64,000 nt of DNA from the sequence record MH992122.1; one strand, written 5' to 3'. How positions within the stretch are numbered: the first letter of the stretch is position 1; each line of letters opens with the position of its first letter. The position numbers and the translations under genes are program-made. The notes under the pieces were generated by a model. It was not told the origin of the DNA. It made no database searches and saw nothing but the letters and a program-made list of their open reading frames with translations. Below are positions 1 to 13,395 of the stretch, piece after piece. This DNA is from Escherichia phage OLB35.

Positions 1-12
1 TGATATGTTTTC
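1..12 (-). CDS. 5' end of an internal-protein-like gene (MKTY...), continues beyond window start
   Basis: RC of 1-12 reads ATG AAA ACA TAT; an early promoter lies just upstream at 46-75; only 4 codons are in the window. Confidence 0.3.
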
Positions 13-45
13 ATTTTTTGTTTCCTTGTTTGTTTTGATAGAGTA

Positions 46-3757: not shown

Positions 3758-3777
3758 AATATTCTCCTCATGTTTTA

Positions 3778-3815
3778 ATAGGACTACTATAACATAGTCC
3801 TATAATTGTGTAAAC
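3778..3815 (-). promoter_or_regulatory. early promoter in a stem-loop (PeSL-like)
   Basis: minus strand GTTTAC (3810-3815), 18-nt spacer, TATAGT (3786-3791); inverted repeat ATAGGACT/AGTCCTAT flanks the -10. Confidence 0.5.
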
Positions 3816-3827
3816 AGTTTTGCGAAA

Positions 3828-4784
3828 TTATTTGAAAGGTTTTACCATATGGAAATTTTGTTTAAAACGTTTTACATAATCGTCATGTCCTAAGCTTTGG
3901 TACATACTTACAACTTTGCTGTAGTTTTCCCAAGCGTATTCACGGAACCAGCCTGACGTGATTGAAGTACAGACTTTTTCTAATGCCATCATAAAACTAT
4001 CACGTGGATGGATTTCAAAGTTATTAGGAATCTGAGAACGTTCTAACGCTAGTACACATGATTCTTCGTATACGCCGGCTAATTTGACCATTTCTGGTAA
4101 TGATTCGAACTTCTCGCGTGAGGTCATGACTTCAGAACCATCTTTCATATAAAATGTATACGCTGGACGGTCTGTTAGTGCAATGGCTTCGTGAATAGTA
4201 TCATGGTCATACGTATAGATGTCATCTTTAAAGAATGCGCTTTTAGAAGTGTCAAGAACTGGGTGAGCATAGTTCAAGGTTTCTTTCTGGCGTTTCAGCA
4301 TAATTTCAGTAAGTTCATCGTTCAGTGTAACACCTTTACCACGAAGATACTGAATATGGTTCATAGTCTTTAAAAAGAATGGATTATTTTTCTTGAAACG
4401 ATGAGACATCTTAATTGCAAGACACATCTCAGGAGTTGCCCAGTAAAACCCGTTCAAACGGTCTTTAGTCAAATTTTTCTTGGCGTATTTTAAAAGGTCA
4501 TAAGAAGACGTGAAATCTTCAGGAGTGAGTTCACCGACTAATTCACGGACATTAGTGATTGCCGGAACAATATATGCTTCAAAATGAGTTTCGCGTCCAT
4601 TATGGAAGCATTTGAAAACTTGGACATCAGGGTTATCTTGGTGAACATATACACCCATCATTTGATTTTTGAATACATTCCAAGAACCTTGGTCCGCAAT
4701 AAAGTCCCAATCACTATTTTTGATAGCGCTAGAATCAATAAGGCCGTGATAGTGAAGTGCACGAGAACCAATAACTAACATCAT
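3828..4784 (-). CDS. hypothetical protein, possible minimal nucleotidyltransferase fold
   Basis: 318 aa; N-terminal GS...SDWD resembles the GS-x(n)-D-x-D NTase motif (spacing longer than typical); no confident homolog recalled. Confidence 0.55.
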   Translation of the reverse strand: MMLVIGSRALHYHGLIDSSAIKNSDWDFIADQGSWNVFKNQMMGVYVHQDNPDVQVFKCFHNGRETHFEAYIVPAITNVRELVGELTPEDFTSSYDLLKYAKKNLTKDRLNGFYWATPEMCLAIKMSHRFKKNNPFFLKTMNHIQYLRGKGVTLNDELTEIMLKRQKETLNYAHPVLDTSKSAFFKDDIYTYDHDTIHEAIALTDRPAYTFYMKDGSEVMTSREKFESLPEMVKLAGVYEESCVLALERSQIPNNFEIHPRDSFMMALEKVCTSITSGWFREYAWENYSKVVSMYQSLGHDDYVKRFKQNFHMVKPFK

Positions 4785-4812: not shown

Positions 4813-5064
4813 TTAAATTTCGCGACATGCGATATTATATTCATCCCAGAGGTCGTCATGTGAAGCCTCTACCAATGGAACGATTGTGCCGTTTATGTCT
4901 TCATTATAAGGGCAAATTGTACAGTGCGCATCTTCGAATCGGATGCCTTTGTGTTCAGATTTTTTATAACGCATATCGAATATCTTTGCAAACTTTTCAC
5001 GAGTAATAGTTTTAGCAACTACTTCTGTTCCTATACTTTCGTAATAAACCATTGTTGTCTCCAT
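4813..5064 (-). CDS. hypothetical protein
   Basis: 83 aa ORF downstream of the PeSL-like promoter at 5074-5110. Confidence 0.45.
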   Translation of the reverse strand: METTMVYYESIGTEVVAKTITREKFAKIFDMRYKKSEHKGIRFEDAHCTICPYNEDINGTIVPLVEASHDDLWDEYNIACREI

Positions 5065-5073
5065 TTAATTTGA

Positions 5074-5110
5074 TAGGACTACTATAACATAGCCCTATCT
5101 TGTTGTAAAC
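5074..5110 (-). promoter_or_regulatory. early promoter in a stem-loop (PeSL-like)
   Basis: minus strand GTTTAC (5105-5110), 18-nt spacer, TATAGT (5081-5086); GATAGGACT...AGCCCTATC inverted repeat. Confidence 0.5.
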
Positions 5111-5114
5111 TGTT

Positions 5115-5312
5115 TTAGCAAGAATAACTAGATGATACCCAGCCTTGAACAGTAATACTATTATTTGATAACGAGATTGCGTCCTGGAGATTCAGACCTG
5201 CATTATCTTCAATCCACAATGTAACTTCTTCACGCTCTTCGGTTGCAATCTGGAACAGGTTTTCTAGAGCAGCTACTGCCGTACGTACAGCACAATCTAA
5301 TTCACGAGACAT
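5115..5312 (-). CDS. small protein, paralog family member P3 (C-terminal GWVSSSYSC)
   Basis: 65 aa; conserved C-terminal tail shared with the ORFs at 5322-5595 and 5605-5910. Confidence 0.5.
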   Translation of the reverse strand: MSRELDCAVRTAVAALENLFQIATEEREEVTLWIEDNAGLNLQDAISLSNNSITVQGWVSSSYSC

Positions 5313-5321
5313 ATGATTTCC

Positions 5322-5595
5322 TTAACAAGTGTGAGAAGATGCAACCCAACCACCATCTTCAAGGCTCAAGTTGTAGTCGTATTGGTAAACGTCGGCCCAT
5401 TCAGCATAACCGTTTTTTTGTACAACGTTCAAGATCGGCTTTAAGATGTCCTGGTGAATGATAGGTTCCACCCATGCCATAAGCTGGATACAAGTTGAAT
5501 GTTGTGTTTTGTTTATTAGCAATTTCTTTGGCAGCCTCAATAGCTGCATAGATTTTTGCTACAGCTTCAGCCAGTTCGGTTTGTTCTTTAGACAT
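5322..5595 (-). pseudogene. paralog P2 with frameshift at a homopolymer
   Basis: N-terminal frame (5401-5595) and C-terminal frame (5322-5549, ending GGWVASSHTC) differ by one nt; the switch maps to a 7-nt homopolymer at plus 5413-5419. Confidence 0.45.
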
Positions 5596-5604
5596 AATGA
5601 TTCC

Positions 5605-5910
5605 TTAGCACAACGCAGAAGACGAAACCCAAGCACCTTCAGTAATAACGTAACCATTACCTTCACGCTTAACATCGCCACCATTATTTTCAATTTCATC
5701 TTTCATCCACTGGGATACGATTTCACCCTTAGGATAATAAGTACGACCGCTACCATAATCACCTACAGAAAATGATACTGCATATTGGTCTGCGATCTTT
5801 GTTGCTTCTTCTTCGATACGTTCAGCTTGATTCAGAAGTTTATAAATTGCATCTGAAGCGGATTTGGCATCATTAAACTCTGGTACTTTAATTTCAATAA
5901 TCTTACTCAT
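5605..5910 (-). CDS. small protein, paralog family member P1 (C-terminal AWVSSSALC)
   Basis: 101 aa; shares MSK start, YGxGxTY and NGY motifs and the C-terminal tail with P2. Confidence 0.55.
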   Translation of the reverse strand: MSKIIEIKVPEFNDAKSASDAIYKLLNQAERIEEEATKIADQYAVSFSVGDYGSGRTYYPKGEIVSQWMKDEIENNGGDVKREGNGYVITEGAWVSSSALC

Positions 5911-5942
5911 TTTCTACATTCCTTAATAAAGTTTTCGATTGT

Positions 5943-6332
5943 TTCATTTTCACGTTTAGCTAGGAGTTCATTATAACTAATCATTTGAGAAGCGTAAACA
6001 GCATAAATTCAGTTAAGGCTTTTGCATCTTATTTCCTTAACGAATTCCATAGCTTCTTCATATTCATACTTTTTAACAGCTTCGATTGTTTCATTTTCAC
6101 GTTTAGCTAGGAGTTCATTATAACTAATCATTTGAGAAGCGTAAACAACGCCGTCAATAAGAAATCCAACTAATCCAAAGGCAAATCCCATGCCAATACT
6201 CATAATAAAAATTAGAATGTTCTCACCAAGAGAAGGCCAGCATAAATTCAGTTAAGGCTTTTGCATCTTATTTCCTTAACGAATTCCATAGCTTCTTCAT
6301 ATTCATACTTTTTAACAGCTTCATCATACTGA
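5943..6332. repeat. nested direct repeats A (about 66 bp) and B (about 83 bp) in order A-B-A-(93 bp)-B
   Basis: A at 5943-6009 and 6090-6156; B at 6009-6091 and 6250-6332, near identical by eye. Confidence 0.8.
6009..6203 (-). CDS. small membrane protein (chimeric: unique N-term + repeat A + repeat B)
   Basis: 64 aa; C-terminal 22 aa identical to the C-terminus of the ORF at 6248-6640. Confidence 0.4.
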   Translation of the reverse strand: MSIGMGFAFGLVGFLIDGVVYASQMISYNELLAKRENETIEAVKKYEYEEAMEFVKEIRCKSLN

Positions 6333-6640
6333 GCTTGGGCTTTTGCGCACTGAACTTTCCATTCTCTTAATCGGGCTCTGTGATGACGTCCTTGGTACCA
6401 ATATCCCATCCAGTTAATAGGCATTAATAAAAACGGTACAATAAGTGGTGCGACGAACATTAATGAAAATGCTGCATCAGACGATATAACTTCACTAGAA
6501 TCTAAAACGGCTCCTATAATCATAAAGATTAAAAATGCTAAAGCTAAAATAGGGCCAAATAGTACTTCATTTGGGATTAATTTACGCTTGTATTCATACG
6601 CCCAGGGCTTACTTGGCATGTATAGGGTTGGCTTTGACAT
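6248..6640 (-). CDS. hypothetical membrane protein
   Basis: about 130 aa from ATG at 6640 (the track start at 6670 is TTG); two hydrophobic segments; C-terminus encoded by repeat B. Confidence 0.45.
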   Translation of the reverse strand: MSKPTLYMPSKPWAYEYKRKLIPNEVLFGPILALAFLIFMIIGAVLDSSEVISSDAAFSLMFVAPLIVPFLLMPINWMGYWYQGRHHRARLREWKVQCAKAQAQYDEAVKKYEYEEAMEFVKEIRCKSLN

Positions 6641-7211
6641 ATTCTCTACATTCCATAATAAATTGCTCAAGGATTAAATTGTTAGTGAAATTAGGACTAA
6701 CAACCATAGTTTCATAAAGCGCATCAATAGCACTTAAAGCATCAACTCTCTTAAGCAAAGGCTTGCCTTCATACATAGTTTCAGAATCGACGATTAACGT
6801 AAAGTAGTATTTTTTATTATCGACTAGAACTTCTGTATCGATATAAAACATATTAGTCCTCAGAAGCTTATCTCTAAAACCATAATAATCTTCAGAGCGT
6901 TCGCTGATATATTCCCATTCAGTGTTTAAACAACAAACAGACCACGTAGGAGCAACGAAATCAGTGAATCTAATATCATGGTCTGCAACTAGTTTAGCAA
7001 TAGCTCCGATATCATGAATCATAATACCTGGGGCTAATAAAGATTTTCTGCTATGGCTAGCCGTTTTCTCGGTGGTCTCATAAGAAGACGACCAGTACCA
7101 TTTACGTCCGGTTGCAACATATCGTAATGAATCAACTAAAGACGTAGGTGGATTTACCTTATCTCGGAACTCTTCGAACATTGAGTCAATATCATTATTT
7201 TGGTTTCGCAT
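6609..7211 (-). CDS. hypothetical protein
   Basis: about 200 aa from ATG at 7211 (MRNQNN) with SD AAGGAG; C-terminal region FIMECR is part of the junction motif. Confidence 0.5.
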   Translation of the reverse strand: MRNQNNDIDSMFEEFRDKVNPPTSLVDSLRYVATGRKWYWSSSYETTEKTASHSRKSLLAPGIMIHDIGAIAKLVADHDIRFTDFVAPTWSVCCLNTEWEYISERSEDYYGFRDKLLRTNMFYIDTEVLVDNKKYYFTLIVDSETMYEGKPLLKRVDALSAIDALYETMVVSPNFTNNLILEQFIMECREYVKANPIHAK

Positions 7212-7228: not shown

Positions 7229-7252
7229 CCAAAAGGAGGACCGGAGTCCTCC
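7229..7252 (-). terminator. hairpin followed by T-run on minus strand
   Basis: stem GGAGGAC/GTCCTCC, loop CGGA, then TTTTGG on the minus strand; directly precedes the RBS of the next gene. Confidence 0.4.
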
Positions 7253-7924: not shown

Positions 7925-8152
7925 TTATTTTTTAATCAAATTGACATAAAACTTGGCGTCTTCCGGGTGCATGCCTTCGCAGTATTCTTCAACCATGAAC
8001 TTCTTAACAGCTTCATAAGGACCACTCAGATTAAGCTCAGTTGTCCAAAACTTGGAATCTTGGGCTGAATCGATACGAACTTCAGGGTGTCGGTTGCGAA
8101 TAACTTCTTCGGTGTATTCATAATCAACGACATCAATACTAACTTTAGCCAT
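7925..8152 (-). CDS. hypothetical protein
   Basis: 75 aa; preceded by module M copy 1 (promoter plus conserved leader with GAGGAG). Confidence 0.45.
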   Translation of the reverse strand: MAKVSIDVVDYEYTEEVIRNRHPEVRIDSAQDSKFWTTELNLSGPYEAVKKFMVEEYCEGMHPEDAKFYVNLIKK

Positions 8153-8161
8153 TTTGTTTCT

Positions 8162-8635
8162 CCTCTGTAGTTGATAAGTCTTAACTATAGTATCACCATC
8201 ATTGGTGTTTGTACATCATTATTTTTAATTTTTCCAACTTAACAACCTTCAGCCAAGATACAACAGAGTTTTTATCTGAGGATTCAAATTCAGGCATTGG
8301 ACTTTCACCGCGAATAACTTCTTCGGTGTATTCATAATCAACGACATCAATACTAACTTTAGCCATTTTGTTTCTCCTCTGTAGTTGATAAGTCCTATAG
8401 TATCACCATCATTGGTGTTTGTACATCATTTATTTTTAATTTTTCCAACTTAACAACTTGTAGTGTCCTTCATTCATACGTGGTTTATCCCAAGAAATAC
8501 TAATATATGATTCGCCATCAATAGCTTTTTCTTCACCACCACCACTGATAGTCCTCTGTAGTTGATAAGTCCTATAGTATCACCATCATTGGTGTTTGTC
8601 AACTATTATTTTTAATTTTTCCAACTTAAAACTTG
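8162..8635. repeat. three tandem copies of a roughly 90-bp promoter/leader module (M) separated by partial gene duplicates
   Basis: module CCTCTGTAGTTGATAAGTC...TATAGTATCACCATCATTGGTGTTTG...TTTTTAATTTTTCCAACTTA at 8162-8255, 8376-8456, 8549-8635; 8300-8375 duplicates the 5' end of the 7925-8152 gene; 8457-8530 duplicates the 3' end of the 8626-8916 gene. Confidence 0.8.
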
Positions 8636-8916
8636 TAGTGTCCTTCATTCATACGTGGTTTATCCCAAGAAATACTAATATATGATTCGCCATCAATAGA
8701 AGTCGCCGGGTTTTTCTCTACCGTAAGACCTTCACTTTCCAGCCATTCAATAGTATTTGCGCATAAATCTGAAGAACACCTCATCGGAAACTGGCAAGAT
8801 TTTTCACCTTTAGATGCAGCGTTATACATCTTTTCTAAAATACGCTTTTGCACGTTTTTAAAAATGGTTTCAGCAGATTCTTCAGATTTTTTATTCAGTT
8901 CAGTATAAAGACTCAT
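8626..8916 (-). CDS. hypothetical protein
   Basis: about 96 aa from ATG at 8916 (MSLYTELNKK) with SD GAGGAG. Confidence 0.45.
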   Translation of the reverse strand: MSLYTELNKKSEESAETIFKNVQKRILEKMYNAASKGEKSCQFPMRCSSDLCANTIEWLESEGLTVEKNPATSIDGESYISISWDKPRMNEGHYKF

Positions 8917-9042
8917 AATATTCTCCTCATTAATAGGGCTCATAATATCTCAATCATTAGCTCATTTACGTATTTATAGTAACAGCATTCTCTGAGAGAT
9001 TCAAACTAAAAAGCCCCAACCTTTTGGCTAGGGTACAGAATG

Positions 9043-11653: not shown

Positions 11654-11839
11654 TTACTCACCTTTTGCAATTTTATCCATAACGATAGCGATTAAGCCGA
11701 TTAGAAATGCTACTACCAATGAGATAGAGTTTTCAGTTGTTGTCAGTAGTCCACAAATGAATCCTACAAACATCGAAAAGCTAAAAGCCATTGAAGCAAT
11801 TACTACAGCAACATTACGAATCAGTTCAGCGCGTTTCAT
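11654..11839 (-). CDS. small membrane protein
   Basis: 61 aa, mostly hydrophobic (MAFSFSMFVGFICGLL...LVVAFLIGLIAIV). Confidence 0.45.
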   Translation of the reverse strand: MKRAELIRNVAVVIASMAFSFSMFVGFICGLLTTTENSISLVVAFLIGLIAIVMDKIAKGE

Positions 11840-12270
11840 TTTATTTCTCCTTTACTCATTTTGTTTTGATAGGACTACTATAACATATCCATATAGGCTT
11901 GTATATCTTTATTTCAAATATATTGCGTATTTTTTATAGCCACCAGGCTCGTGTCGAAGACCTTTATCATTCGCAAAACGTTGAATGTTATTGAACTGGT
12001 TTTCATCGAATGATGATTTAATCTTAGCTTTAGATCCTTTAGTTATAGAAATAAACATCTCGGAAGACCCTTTCTTAAAGTCTGATGCAGATACTTCAAC
12101 ACCGTTCTTAGCAAGTGACCTCAGAATTGCATCTGCGTACACTTCATATGTGTCGAATATGAAAAAGTTTTGTTAGCTACCAAGCGTGATATATTGAGAA
12201 TCAGTTCAGCGCGTTTCATTTTATTTCTCCATTTACTCATTTTGTTTTGATAGGACTATTATAACATAGT
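11818..12270. repeat. direct repeat pair (about 70 bp each) carrying a PeSL-like promoter, leader and first 7 codons (MKRAELI)
   Basis: copies at 11818-11890 and 12198-12270 differ at a few positions. Confidence 0.75.
11909..12213 (-). pseudogene. hypothetical gene with probable frameshift
   Basis: ATG at 12213 (MKRAELI...) stops after 32 codons; the 77-aa track ORF (11909-12142, GTG start, no SD) is in another frame; frames merge at a 5-nt homopolymer near 12162-12166. Confidence 0.35.
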
Positions 12271-12287
12271 CCTATCGGCATGTAAAC
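12258..12287 (-). promoter_or_regulatory. early promoter in a stem-loop (PeSL-like)
   Basis: minus strand GTTTAC (12282-12287), 18-nt spacer, TATAAT (12258-12263); flanking inverted repeat GATAGGACT/AGTCCTATC. Confidence 0.5.
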
Positions 12288-12290
12288 TAC

Positions 12291-12578
12291 TTACAGAAGA
12301 GTTTTTGCAATAATTTTAAGCTGAGCTACAGAAATGTGCTTAGCTTTAAACAGTGCAGTCTCTTCAGCCGGAGAGATAACAATAGTAGCGCCATCTTTCT
12401 TAGCAGACCATCCATCCCCTAAGTAAACAGTACCTTTTACTTCTTCGCCGTCAGCCAGACTAATCATTGGTTTGCCCTCACGTCCTTTATTTGCTTTAAT
12501 AACTTCGGAAGTAAGGGTTGCTTCAGTCAGAGTAGAAACGTTAGCATCAGGTGATATAAATTCTTTATAGGTTTTCAT
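12291..12578 (-). CDS. internal protein I-like (CTS-bearing)
   Basis: 95 aa, starts MKTYKEFIS...; sits immediately next to 57B as ipI does in T4. Confidence 0.55.
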   Translation of the reverse strand: MKTYKEFISPDANVSTLTEATLTSEVIKANKGREGKPMISLADGEEVKGTVYLGDGWSAKKDGATIVISPAEETALFKAKHISVAQLKIIAKTLL

Positions 12579-12623
12579 TTTATTTCCTTGAGGCTGTTTA
12601 TTTGATAGGATGATAGTAACACA

Positions 12624-13395
<772 letters not shown>

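Follow-up and report, generated by a model that had tools for sequence, protein, structure and literature searches.

Nested direct repeats at the e.3 locus of Escherichia phage OLB35 and their probable origin

Introduction

The locus described here raises the question of how two pairs of perfect direct repeats came to be nested in the order A-B-A-X-B among the small membrane-protein genes of Escherichia phage OLB35, and whether the rearrangement created a new gene, scrambled an old one, or belongs to the assembly rather than to the phage. The window, referring to the whole stretch of DNA that was analysed, covers 64,000 nucleotides of sequence record MH992122.1. The plasticity of the hyperplastic regions of T4-type phages is established (PMC2839356, PMC4122927), and complex multi-switch events with 2-5-nt microhomology have been described as the signature of MMBIR (PMC2621351).

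OLB35 is classified in the species Mosigvirus utam, and in the phage collection CCU7 comes closest to it (98.2% over 25 kb). The locus was identified as e.4/e.3 of an RB69-like Mosigvirus (T4-type), being collinear with e.5, e.4, e.3 and ORF139c of RB69, and all genes of this region are encoded on the minus strand. In RB69, the e.3 product is predicted to be a membrane protein of 119 aa and is a homologue of T4 e.3 (120 aa); the ATG of RB69 e.3 lies within the last e.4 codons, and its stop overlaps the ATG of the next gene.

Repeat anatomy

Two direct repeats, A of 67 nt and B of 85 nt, are each present in two 100% identical copies in the order A-B-A-X-B, where X is a unique 90-nt spacer between A2 and B2 (Table 1). 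The adjoining units overlap by CA (2 nt) at A1/B1 and by TTC (3 nt) at B1/A2. Read in gene orientation, the order is e.4 (ending in B2), X, A2, B1, A1 and the next gene. In a repeat scan of the whole 64-kb window, the A and B pairs were the sole 100%-identical long direct repeats, and perfect repeats of such length cannot have originated by chance in 64 kb.

Repeat A is kept in e.3-intact and e.3-deleted relatives alike. B1 carries, in addition to the e.4 tail, the native e.3 ribosome-binding site and start as well as a 10-nt block, GCATAAATTC (6001-6010); the same block at 6240-6249 stands where RB69 has TACGGTTAAG. X shows 100% identity to RB69, SA79RD and MM02 and is missing from the e.3-deleted relatives.

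An earlier note on this DNA, made from the letters alone, had described repeats of about 66 and 83 bp with a 93-bp spacer, two ORFs with an identical 22-aa C-terminus, one A copy stranded after a stop codon, and chimeric membrane-protein genes as the outcome. The repeats are indeed present, with the lengths refined to 67, 85 and 90 nt, and the shared C-terminus extends to 24 residues (EAVKKYEYEEAMEFVKEIRCKSLN). The stranded copy is A1, which follows the stop of the 64-aa ORF and precedes the ATG of the next gene at 5910. The description as chimeric genes holds for the 64-aa ORF and had to be given up for the 130-aa ORF, which is a normal full-length e.4 with its native tail.

Table 1. Features of the e.4/e.3 locus, with positions counted from the first letter of the window
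Feature	Position	Strand	Description
Downstream gene	5605..5910	-	101 aa; homologue of RB69 ORF139c/138c
Repeat A, copy 1 (A1)	5934..6000		3' end of e.3, minus-strand codons for VYASQMISYNELLAKRENETIE; non-coding here
Promoter-like site in repeat A	5970..5998; second copy 6117-6145	-	TTTACG, 17-nt spacer, TATAAT, with GCTT between
Repeat B, copy 1 (B1)	5999..6083		Copied 3' end of e.4, last 24 codons and stop
Chimeric 64-aa ORF	6009..6203	-	e.3 residues 22-41, e.3 residues 91-111, then the last 23 residues of e.4
Repeat A, copy 2 (A2)	6081..6147		Inside the 64-aa ORF
X	6148..6237	-	90-nt true e.3 coding island; first hydrophobic helix, ...ILIFIMSIGMGFAFGLVGFLIDGVV
Repeat B, copy 2 (B2)	6238..6322		Genuine 3' end of e.4
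e.4, intact	6248..6640	-	130 aa from the homologous ATG; predicted membrane protein
Native e.3 start	6252..6266	-	Shine-Dalgarno AAGGA and ATG, then MQKP-stop

Genes of the locus

The intact state of e.4 was certified by its match to PHROG 2604, which spans profile positions 1-130 of 130 (E=3.8e-64) and places the protein in the e.4 family. The protein is 100% identical to that of CCU7 and syntenic with RB69 and T4, between e.5 and e.3; its open frame could be extended upstream to a TTG at 6670. Since e.4 of both RB69 and T4 has the tail, the shared C-terminus is native to e.4 and was copied into the 64-aa ORF.

The native e.3 start is found twice, as an identical second copy occupies 6013-6027 in B1. 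The good e.3 ribosome-binding site (AAGGAAATAAG-ATG) is thus present at both 6266 and 6027, and each copy opens just MQKP-stop. Both effects at this boundary come with the GCATAAATTC block, by which e.4 ends in CKSLN-stop and a TAA stands at e.3 codon 5. Downstream, the start of the 101-aa gene overlaps the end of intact e.3 in the relatives.

Several features of the neighbouring small genes were recorded alongside. The e.3, e.4 and e.5 products, those of T4 too, end alike (..EFIKECRK, ..EFVKEIRCK and ..QFIMECRE; 5909-5930, 6641-6662 and 6266-6290), and the codons of this tail motif form the Shine-Dalgarno sequence (AAGGAA or similar) with the overlapping next start, so that the shared tails are the coding face of a repeated translational-coupling module. 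Three successive small minus-strand genes (5115-5312, 5322-5594 and 5605-5910) share the C-terminal motif G-x-W-V-(S/A)-S-S-x-x-C, in the instances ..GWVSSSYSC, ..GWVASSHTC and ..AWVSSSALC, and constitute a tandem paralogue family. RB69 alone has an extra A at the equivalent of window position 5706, which accounts for the split of its annotation into ORF139c (71 aa) and ORF138c, while the window, CCU7 and the other relatives have one 101-aa gene. Between e.6 and e.5, at 7235-7252, there is a strong hairpin that resembles a bidirectional terminator (GGAGGACCGGAGTCCTCC).

The 64-aa ORF retains 41 of the 119 e.3 codons, having lost the N-terminal 21 aa and the central 48 aa of e.3 as well as the C-terminal ...FIKECRK tail. 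Only ORF residues 1-21 match PHROG 2330 (e.3), at profile positions 22-42 with E=2.8e-5, the remainder being assigned to 2604/37104; the ORF is therefore not a member of the e.3 family. A single hydrophobic segment is present, and neither ATG 6203 nor ATG 6191 is preceded by a Shine-Dalgarno sequence. The OLB35 annotation calls the chimera as a CDS (AYR04047.1, 60 aa from a later start, 100% identical), and this entry was the sole whole-length match in a homology search with the chimeric protein. An exact-protein look-up in assemblies returned no match, Pfam gave sub-threshold matches only, Rfam gave nothing relevant, and no paper naming OLB35 was found in the literature. Judging from sequence, the 64-aa ORF is probably an e.3 pseudogene remnant, poorly translated, and a by-product rather than a new gene.

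Repeat A also contains a promoter-like site with 10 of 12 consensus matches, although such sites are no more frequent in the region than in shuffles. The equivalent site in phage SA79RD is annotated as T4-middle-like. Such a promoter, if real, would explain the retention of A in every e.3-deleted genome.

Allele states among relatives

Comparison with related genomes, which the earlier note had proposed, uncovered a presence/absence polymorphism of e.3 and three states of the locus. In the first, A-M-X-B, e.3 is intact (119 aa) and M denotes 147 unique nt; about 110 records belong here. In the second, found in 29 records, A is joined straight to B, e.3 is gone and the locus is 239 nt shorter. 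The carriers include 14 LF82 phages (LF82-1..41), p000v, TH12, CCU7, phiE142, phiC120, moha, moskry, G2469 and ESh15, and the A/B junction gave a single contiguous match with 96-100% identity among the 29 carriers. The third state, A-B-A-X-B, is that of the window only, among about 146 related genomes.

Megablast returned 99% coverage in ~137 records, as if A-B-A-X-B were a conserved Mosigvirus feature, but the coverage consists of separate pieces joined, and the junction queries refuted it. No database record gave a contiguous match to the queries spanning B1/A2, A2/X and X/B2; exact 28-mers of the three junctions were absent from IMG/VR, and those of B1/A2 and X/B2 were also absent from the JGI metagenomes and from GTDB (one genome per species).

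The distribution of the 10-nt block is equally restricted. In the database, GCATAAATTC is found solely at the A/B junction of the e.3-deleted phages, and no e.3-intact allele with the block at the e.4/e.3 boundary was found in the 110 e.3-intact records, IMG/VR, the metagenomes or GTDB. A search for a template elsewhere in the window gave chance-level near matches only.

Junctions and collinearity

Over 5900-6340, the window and RB69 are 441 versus 441 nt long with no indel, and they differ in two blocks and in scattered single-base differences. In the block 6000-~6143, B1+A2 takes the place of M, and B1+A2 measures exactly 147 nt, the same as the M that it replaced. The equal length suggested a diverged M homologue introduced by in-register conversion, in the way that accounts for the frd.3/ORF145c locus, but this was rejected: in register, 6001-6147 and M share 29% identity versus a shuffle mean of 28%, and other offsets were no better.

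The junction sequences were resolved to the base. The A1/B1 context is GTAAACA/GCATAAATTC, with CA shared with the end of X; the B1/A2 context is CAGCTTC/GATTG, with TTC shared; and the A2/X context is GTAAACA/ACGCC, with AC(A) shared with the end of M. Three novel junctions with overlaps of CA, TTC and AC(A) within 250 nt constitute a breakpoint pattern of the MMBIR/FoSTeS type, and the same rearrangement mixes duplications (67 and 85 nt) with the loss of the 147-nt M. Unequal homologous recombination does not account for it, as in the relatives the duplication endpoints have no more than TTC in common. PeSL shuffling, which exchanges at repeated promoter-early/stem-loop cassettes with tens of nt of homology, does not fit the e.3 locus either, given the junction homology of 2-3 nt, no stem-loop or terminator-like site at the junctions, and a family of early-promoter repeats whose members are all located elsewhere in the window.

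X adjoins the GCATAAATTC block in perfect register with RB69. This register would be natural if the block were an allele of the RB69 sequence, but no e.3-intact genome has that allele.

Recombination between the repeats was also followed in silico. Removal of 6084-6322 (239 nt), as by B x B recombination, leaves a sequence without any difference from LF82-31 across a 240-nt core that contains the junction. Removal of 6001-6147 (147 nt) by A x A recombination yields A-X-B, an in-frame e.3 without M, an arrangement that was found nowhere among the sequences searched.

Flanks and age

The right flank shows 2 mismatches to CCU7 in ~1,580 nt, and the left flank seven differences, all private to CCU7. 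CCU7 has a private cluster of six substitutions within 50 nt (equivalent to window 5578-5628) and a private 1-nt deletion in repeat A (equivalent to 5954), neither of which is shared by the window or by any other relative in the comparison. As both flanks are CCU7-like, a switch of parent across the locus by an inter-lineage crossover was discarded.

The duplicated copies in the window are identical, and the probability of no difference in 152 nt is ~0.05 at 2% divergence. The A/B junction itself is old, since 0-4% differences have accumulated among its 29 carriers, whereas the rearrangement is probably recent, since the window copies are identical and X is identical to three e.3-bearing genomes.

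The neighbouring scrambled locus and other repeats

A second scrambled locus is located 2 kb away at 8096-8700, with minus-strand genes at 7925-8152, 8199-8366 and 8626-8943. At this place CCU7 has ORF146c-promoter-frd.3, to which RB69 and ST2 add a 54-aa ORF145c. The window bears three early-promoter modules and a 55-aa chimera, which consists of the N-terminal 19 aa of frd.3, the middle of ORF145c, and a read-through into a copied ORF146c 3' end and promoter. The locus is 1051 nt long in the window; its counterpart measures 661 nt in CCU7, and in RB69 and ST2 it reaches about 850-872 nt. This arrangement was found in no other record. The exchanged modules are paralogous, the N-termini of frd.3 and ORF145c being ~50% identical (nt). 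With copies 88-99% identical, the locus looks like promoter-cassette shuffling of the kind known from T4-type hyperplastic regions (PMC2839356, PMC4122927), and its repeated early-promoter modules agree in part with PeSL.

Early-promoter-like repeats (GTTTACA...TATAGT...GATAGGACTA...) were also noticed upstream of small genes at 3764-3831, 5059-5126, 11855-11922, 12236-12303 and 12591-12658. A duplication of ~381 nt, containing a promoter and a gene start (11813-11853 versus 12193-12233), is absent from CCU7 at that place.

Origin of the arrangement

Based on the sequence comparison, the locus is best read, with fair though incomplete confidence, as a scrambled, non-functional e.3 remnant that arose recently by microhomology-guided template switching or end joining and not by homologous exchange. 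The earlier note had suspected a recent duplication or illegitimate recombination, which agrees with the perfect copies, the 2-3-nt junction homology and the arrangement being in no other genome. Its further suggestion that new genes were generated does not follow, so that it was partly right: illegitimate recombination, yes; gene creation, no.

The anatomy, the junction sequences, the distribution of alleles among relatives and the identity of the flanks are read directly from the sequences; from these we infer the succession of steps, the mixed infection and the enzymology as follows. The starting point would be a phage that had already lost e.3 and carried the A/B fusion seen in CCU7, p000v, moha and the LF82 phages. 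From there, 147 nt across the deletion junction would have been duplicated via the 3-nt TTC overlap, and a 90-nt piece of e.3 from an e.3-bearing Mosigvirus would have been copied into one of the junction copies via the ACA and CA overlaps. Such a product would be expected from MMBIR/FoSTeS-like repair during replication, with multiple template switches in one event or in several successive ones, in a cell infected by both phage types; a heterology loop between the two alleles may have set it off. The scrambled locus 2 kb away, shuffled in a similar manner, lends some support to this reading.

Several points weigh against this explanation. Any history of the locus needs three rare junctions or an unobserved intermediate. 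No nameable biological step enforces the equality of B1+A2 and M in length, the chance of which is estimated at ~1 in 150-300. Finally, no independent genome or assembly carries the structure.

These points lead to the possibility of an assembly, consensus or mixed-stock artefact, in which an e.3-deleted phage, possibly together with an e.3-bearing one, was merged into a chimera in an RB69-type reference frame. Such an artefact is considered unlikely, yet far from negligible. In its favour are the exact RB69 collinearity (441 versus 441 nt), with the differences confined to two blocks, and the uniqueness of the structure, which has no counterpart in ~146 related genomes or in the scans of IMG/VR, the JGI metagenomes and GTDB. 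The second unique locus (8096-8700) likewise coincides with an indel between CCU7-type and RB69-type sequence, and there an RB69-type island is retained between copies of CCU7-type sequence. Perfect direct repeats make the locus unstable; repeats of 67 and 85 nt are expected to be lost quickly under T4-type recombination, and their persistence counts in favour of an artefact. A homopolymer points in the same direction: 5407-5413 is T7 in the window versus T6 in eight of the eight relatives compared, which splits the 90-aa ORF137c homologue into the overlapping minus-strand ORFs 5322-5549 and 5401-5595, and removal of one T restores the protein. The extra T may be a genuine frameshift or a sequencing error in the homopolymer.

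Simple artefact models nevertheless fail on the particulars of the structure. By reasoning, e.3-deleted reads overlaid on an RB69-type reference put A directly left of B2 and overwrite X; the overlay neither sets A 90 nt further left nor creates B1/A2, and a mixture of the two types would give a de Bruijn graph no edge leading from B to A. The reference-overlay and mixed-graph models were rejected on this ground, as none of them yields A2 left of X or the B1/A2 junction. In addition, 34 kb of structural genes align to CCU7 without a gap, and the repeats of the second locus are 88-99% identical and not perfect, as real evolution predicts.

A narrower form of the template-switching account would have everything happen in one recent repair event, in which the template was switched several times between a phage lacking e.3 and one bearing it, in a mixed infection and starting at a heterology loop, with the frd.3/ORF145c locus as a second product of the same cross; taken in this full form, it is regarded as improbable.

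Alternatively, A-B-A-X-B may be an ancient intermediate that arose once from an e.3-bearing ancestor already possessing GCATAAATTC (MQKP-stop) and served as the precursor of all deleted alleles via B x B recombination, in which case the window would be a surviving relic with repeats kept identical by gene conversion. The B x B product is exactly the deleted allele, and X adjoins GCATAAATTC in the RB69 register, which is expected of an old allele rather than of junction filler; the nonsense codon at e.3 codon 5 would also give a plausible order, in which the gene died first and decayed later. However, the A/B junction has diverged by 0-4% among its carriers while the window copies are identical, and flanks near-identical to one deleted phage, CCU7, would require many independent deletions or gene flow. 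X also lacks private substitutions despite its unconstrained pseudogene status, and the postulated allele occurs in no e.3-intact genome. This alternative is accordingly judged quite improbable.

It is very improbable that the arrangement was selected as a functional innovation, be it a new expressed 60-64-aa single-pass membrane protein with an e.4-type tail and/or a doubled repeat-A promoter: the ORF is open, has one hydrophobic segment and is a CDS in the OLB35 annotation, and the promoter-like site is now present in two copies, but neither candidate ATG has a Shine-Dalgarno sequence, the native e.3 start is closed by a stop, promoter-like matches in the region are no commoner than in shuffles, a structure in a single genome offers no conservation, and e.3 itself is dispensable in 29 relatives.

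Significance

The locus adds one case, from one genome, to a familiar class of events in which a dispensable gene decays and is shuffled within a T4-type hyperplastic region, and it carries little weight for biology at large. Its value lies in one non-essential gene being seen in three allele states (intact, scrambled and deleted) with every junction resolved to the base. For annotation, the 60-64-aa "hypothetical protein" of OLB35 is to be read as an e.3 pseudogene fragment and not as a new membrane-protein family. For the T4-type hyperplastic regions, gene loss and shuffling may proceed via microhomology events besides promoter-cassette (PeSL) recombination. The exact length match with the intact allele is at the same time a warning on using the deposited sequence as evidence for any mechanism. 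If a single repair event did produce the arrangement, the locus would be a natural record of how T4-type phages handle indel heterologies, in which a lost gene was partly re-acquired between duplications of its own deletion junction, and it would show the birth of chimeric small ORFs.

Comparison with known systems

The locus of the window occupies the genomic position of e.3 in T4 and RB69, with e.4 on one side and the ORF139c homologue on the other. Both X and A consist of e.3 sequence, with 98.5-100% identity to RB69, and the native start overlapping the e.4 stop has been kept. Different from intact e.3, a copied e.4 tail breaks up the order, codon 5 is a stop and one portion of the gene occurs in two copies.

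The e.3-deleted allele shares with the window the identical A/GCATAAATTC/B junction, the same e.4 allele (CKSLN-stop) and near-identical flanks, and the window is distinguished from it by an extra 239 nt (B-A-X).

Among recombination systems, the MMBIR/FoSTeS model (Hastings et al. 2009, PMC2621351) resembles the window in combining duplication and deletion with a short templated island and 2-3-nt microhomology, all within ~400 nt. The model was defined in cellular genomes, whereas the window belongs to a phage with T4-type recombination-dependent replication, for which a replicative origin of the junctions is what we infer. The AV110 Emp preprint was considered as a further parallel and set aside, as it concerns another locus, near motA.

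PeSL shuffling (Arbiol et al. 2010, PMC2839356; Comeau et al. 2014, PMC4122927) takes place in the same kind of region, among non-essential early genes, and has a common outcome with the window, including the insertion, deletion or replacement of small ORFs, chimeric ORFs, and segments excisable between direct repeats. In contrast to PeSL shuffling, the junctions at the e.3 locus are located away from promoter/stem-loop cassettes, and since they share only 2-3 nt, the exchange at this locus is illegitimate and not homologous.
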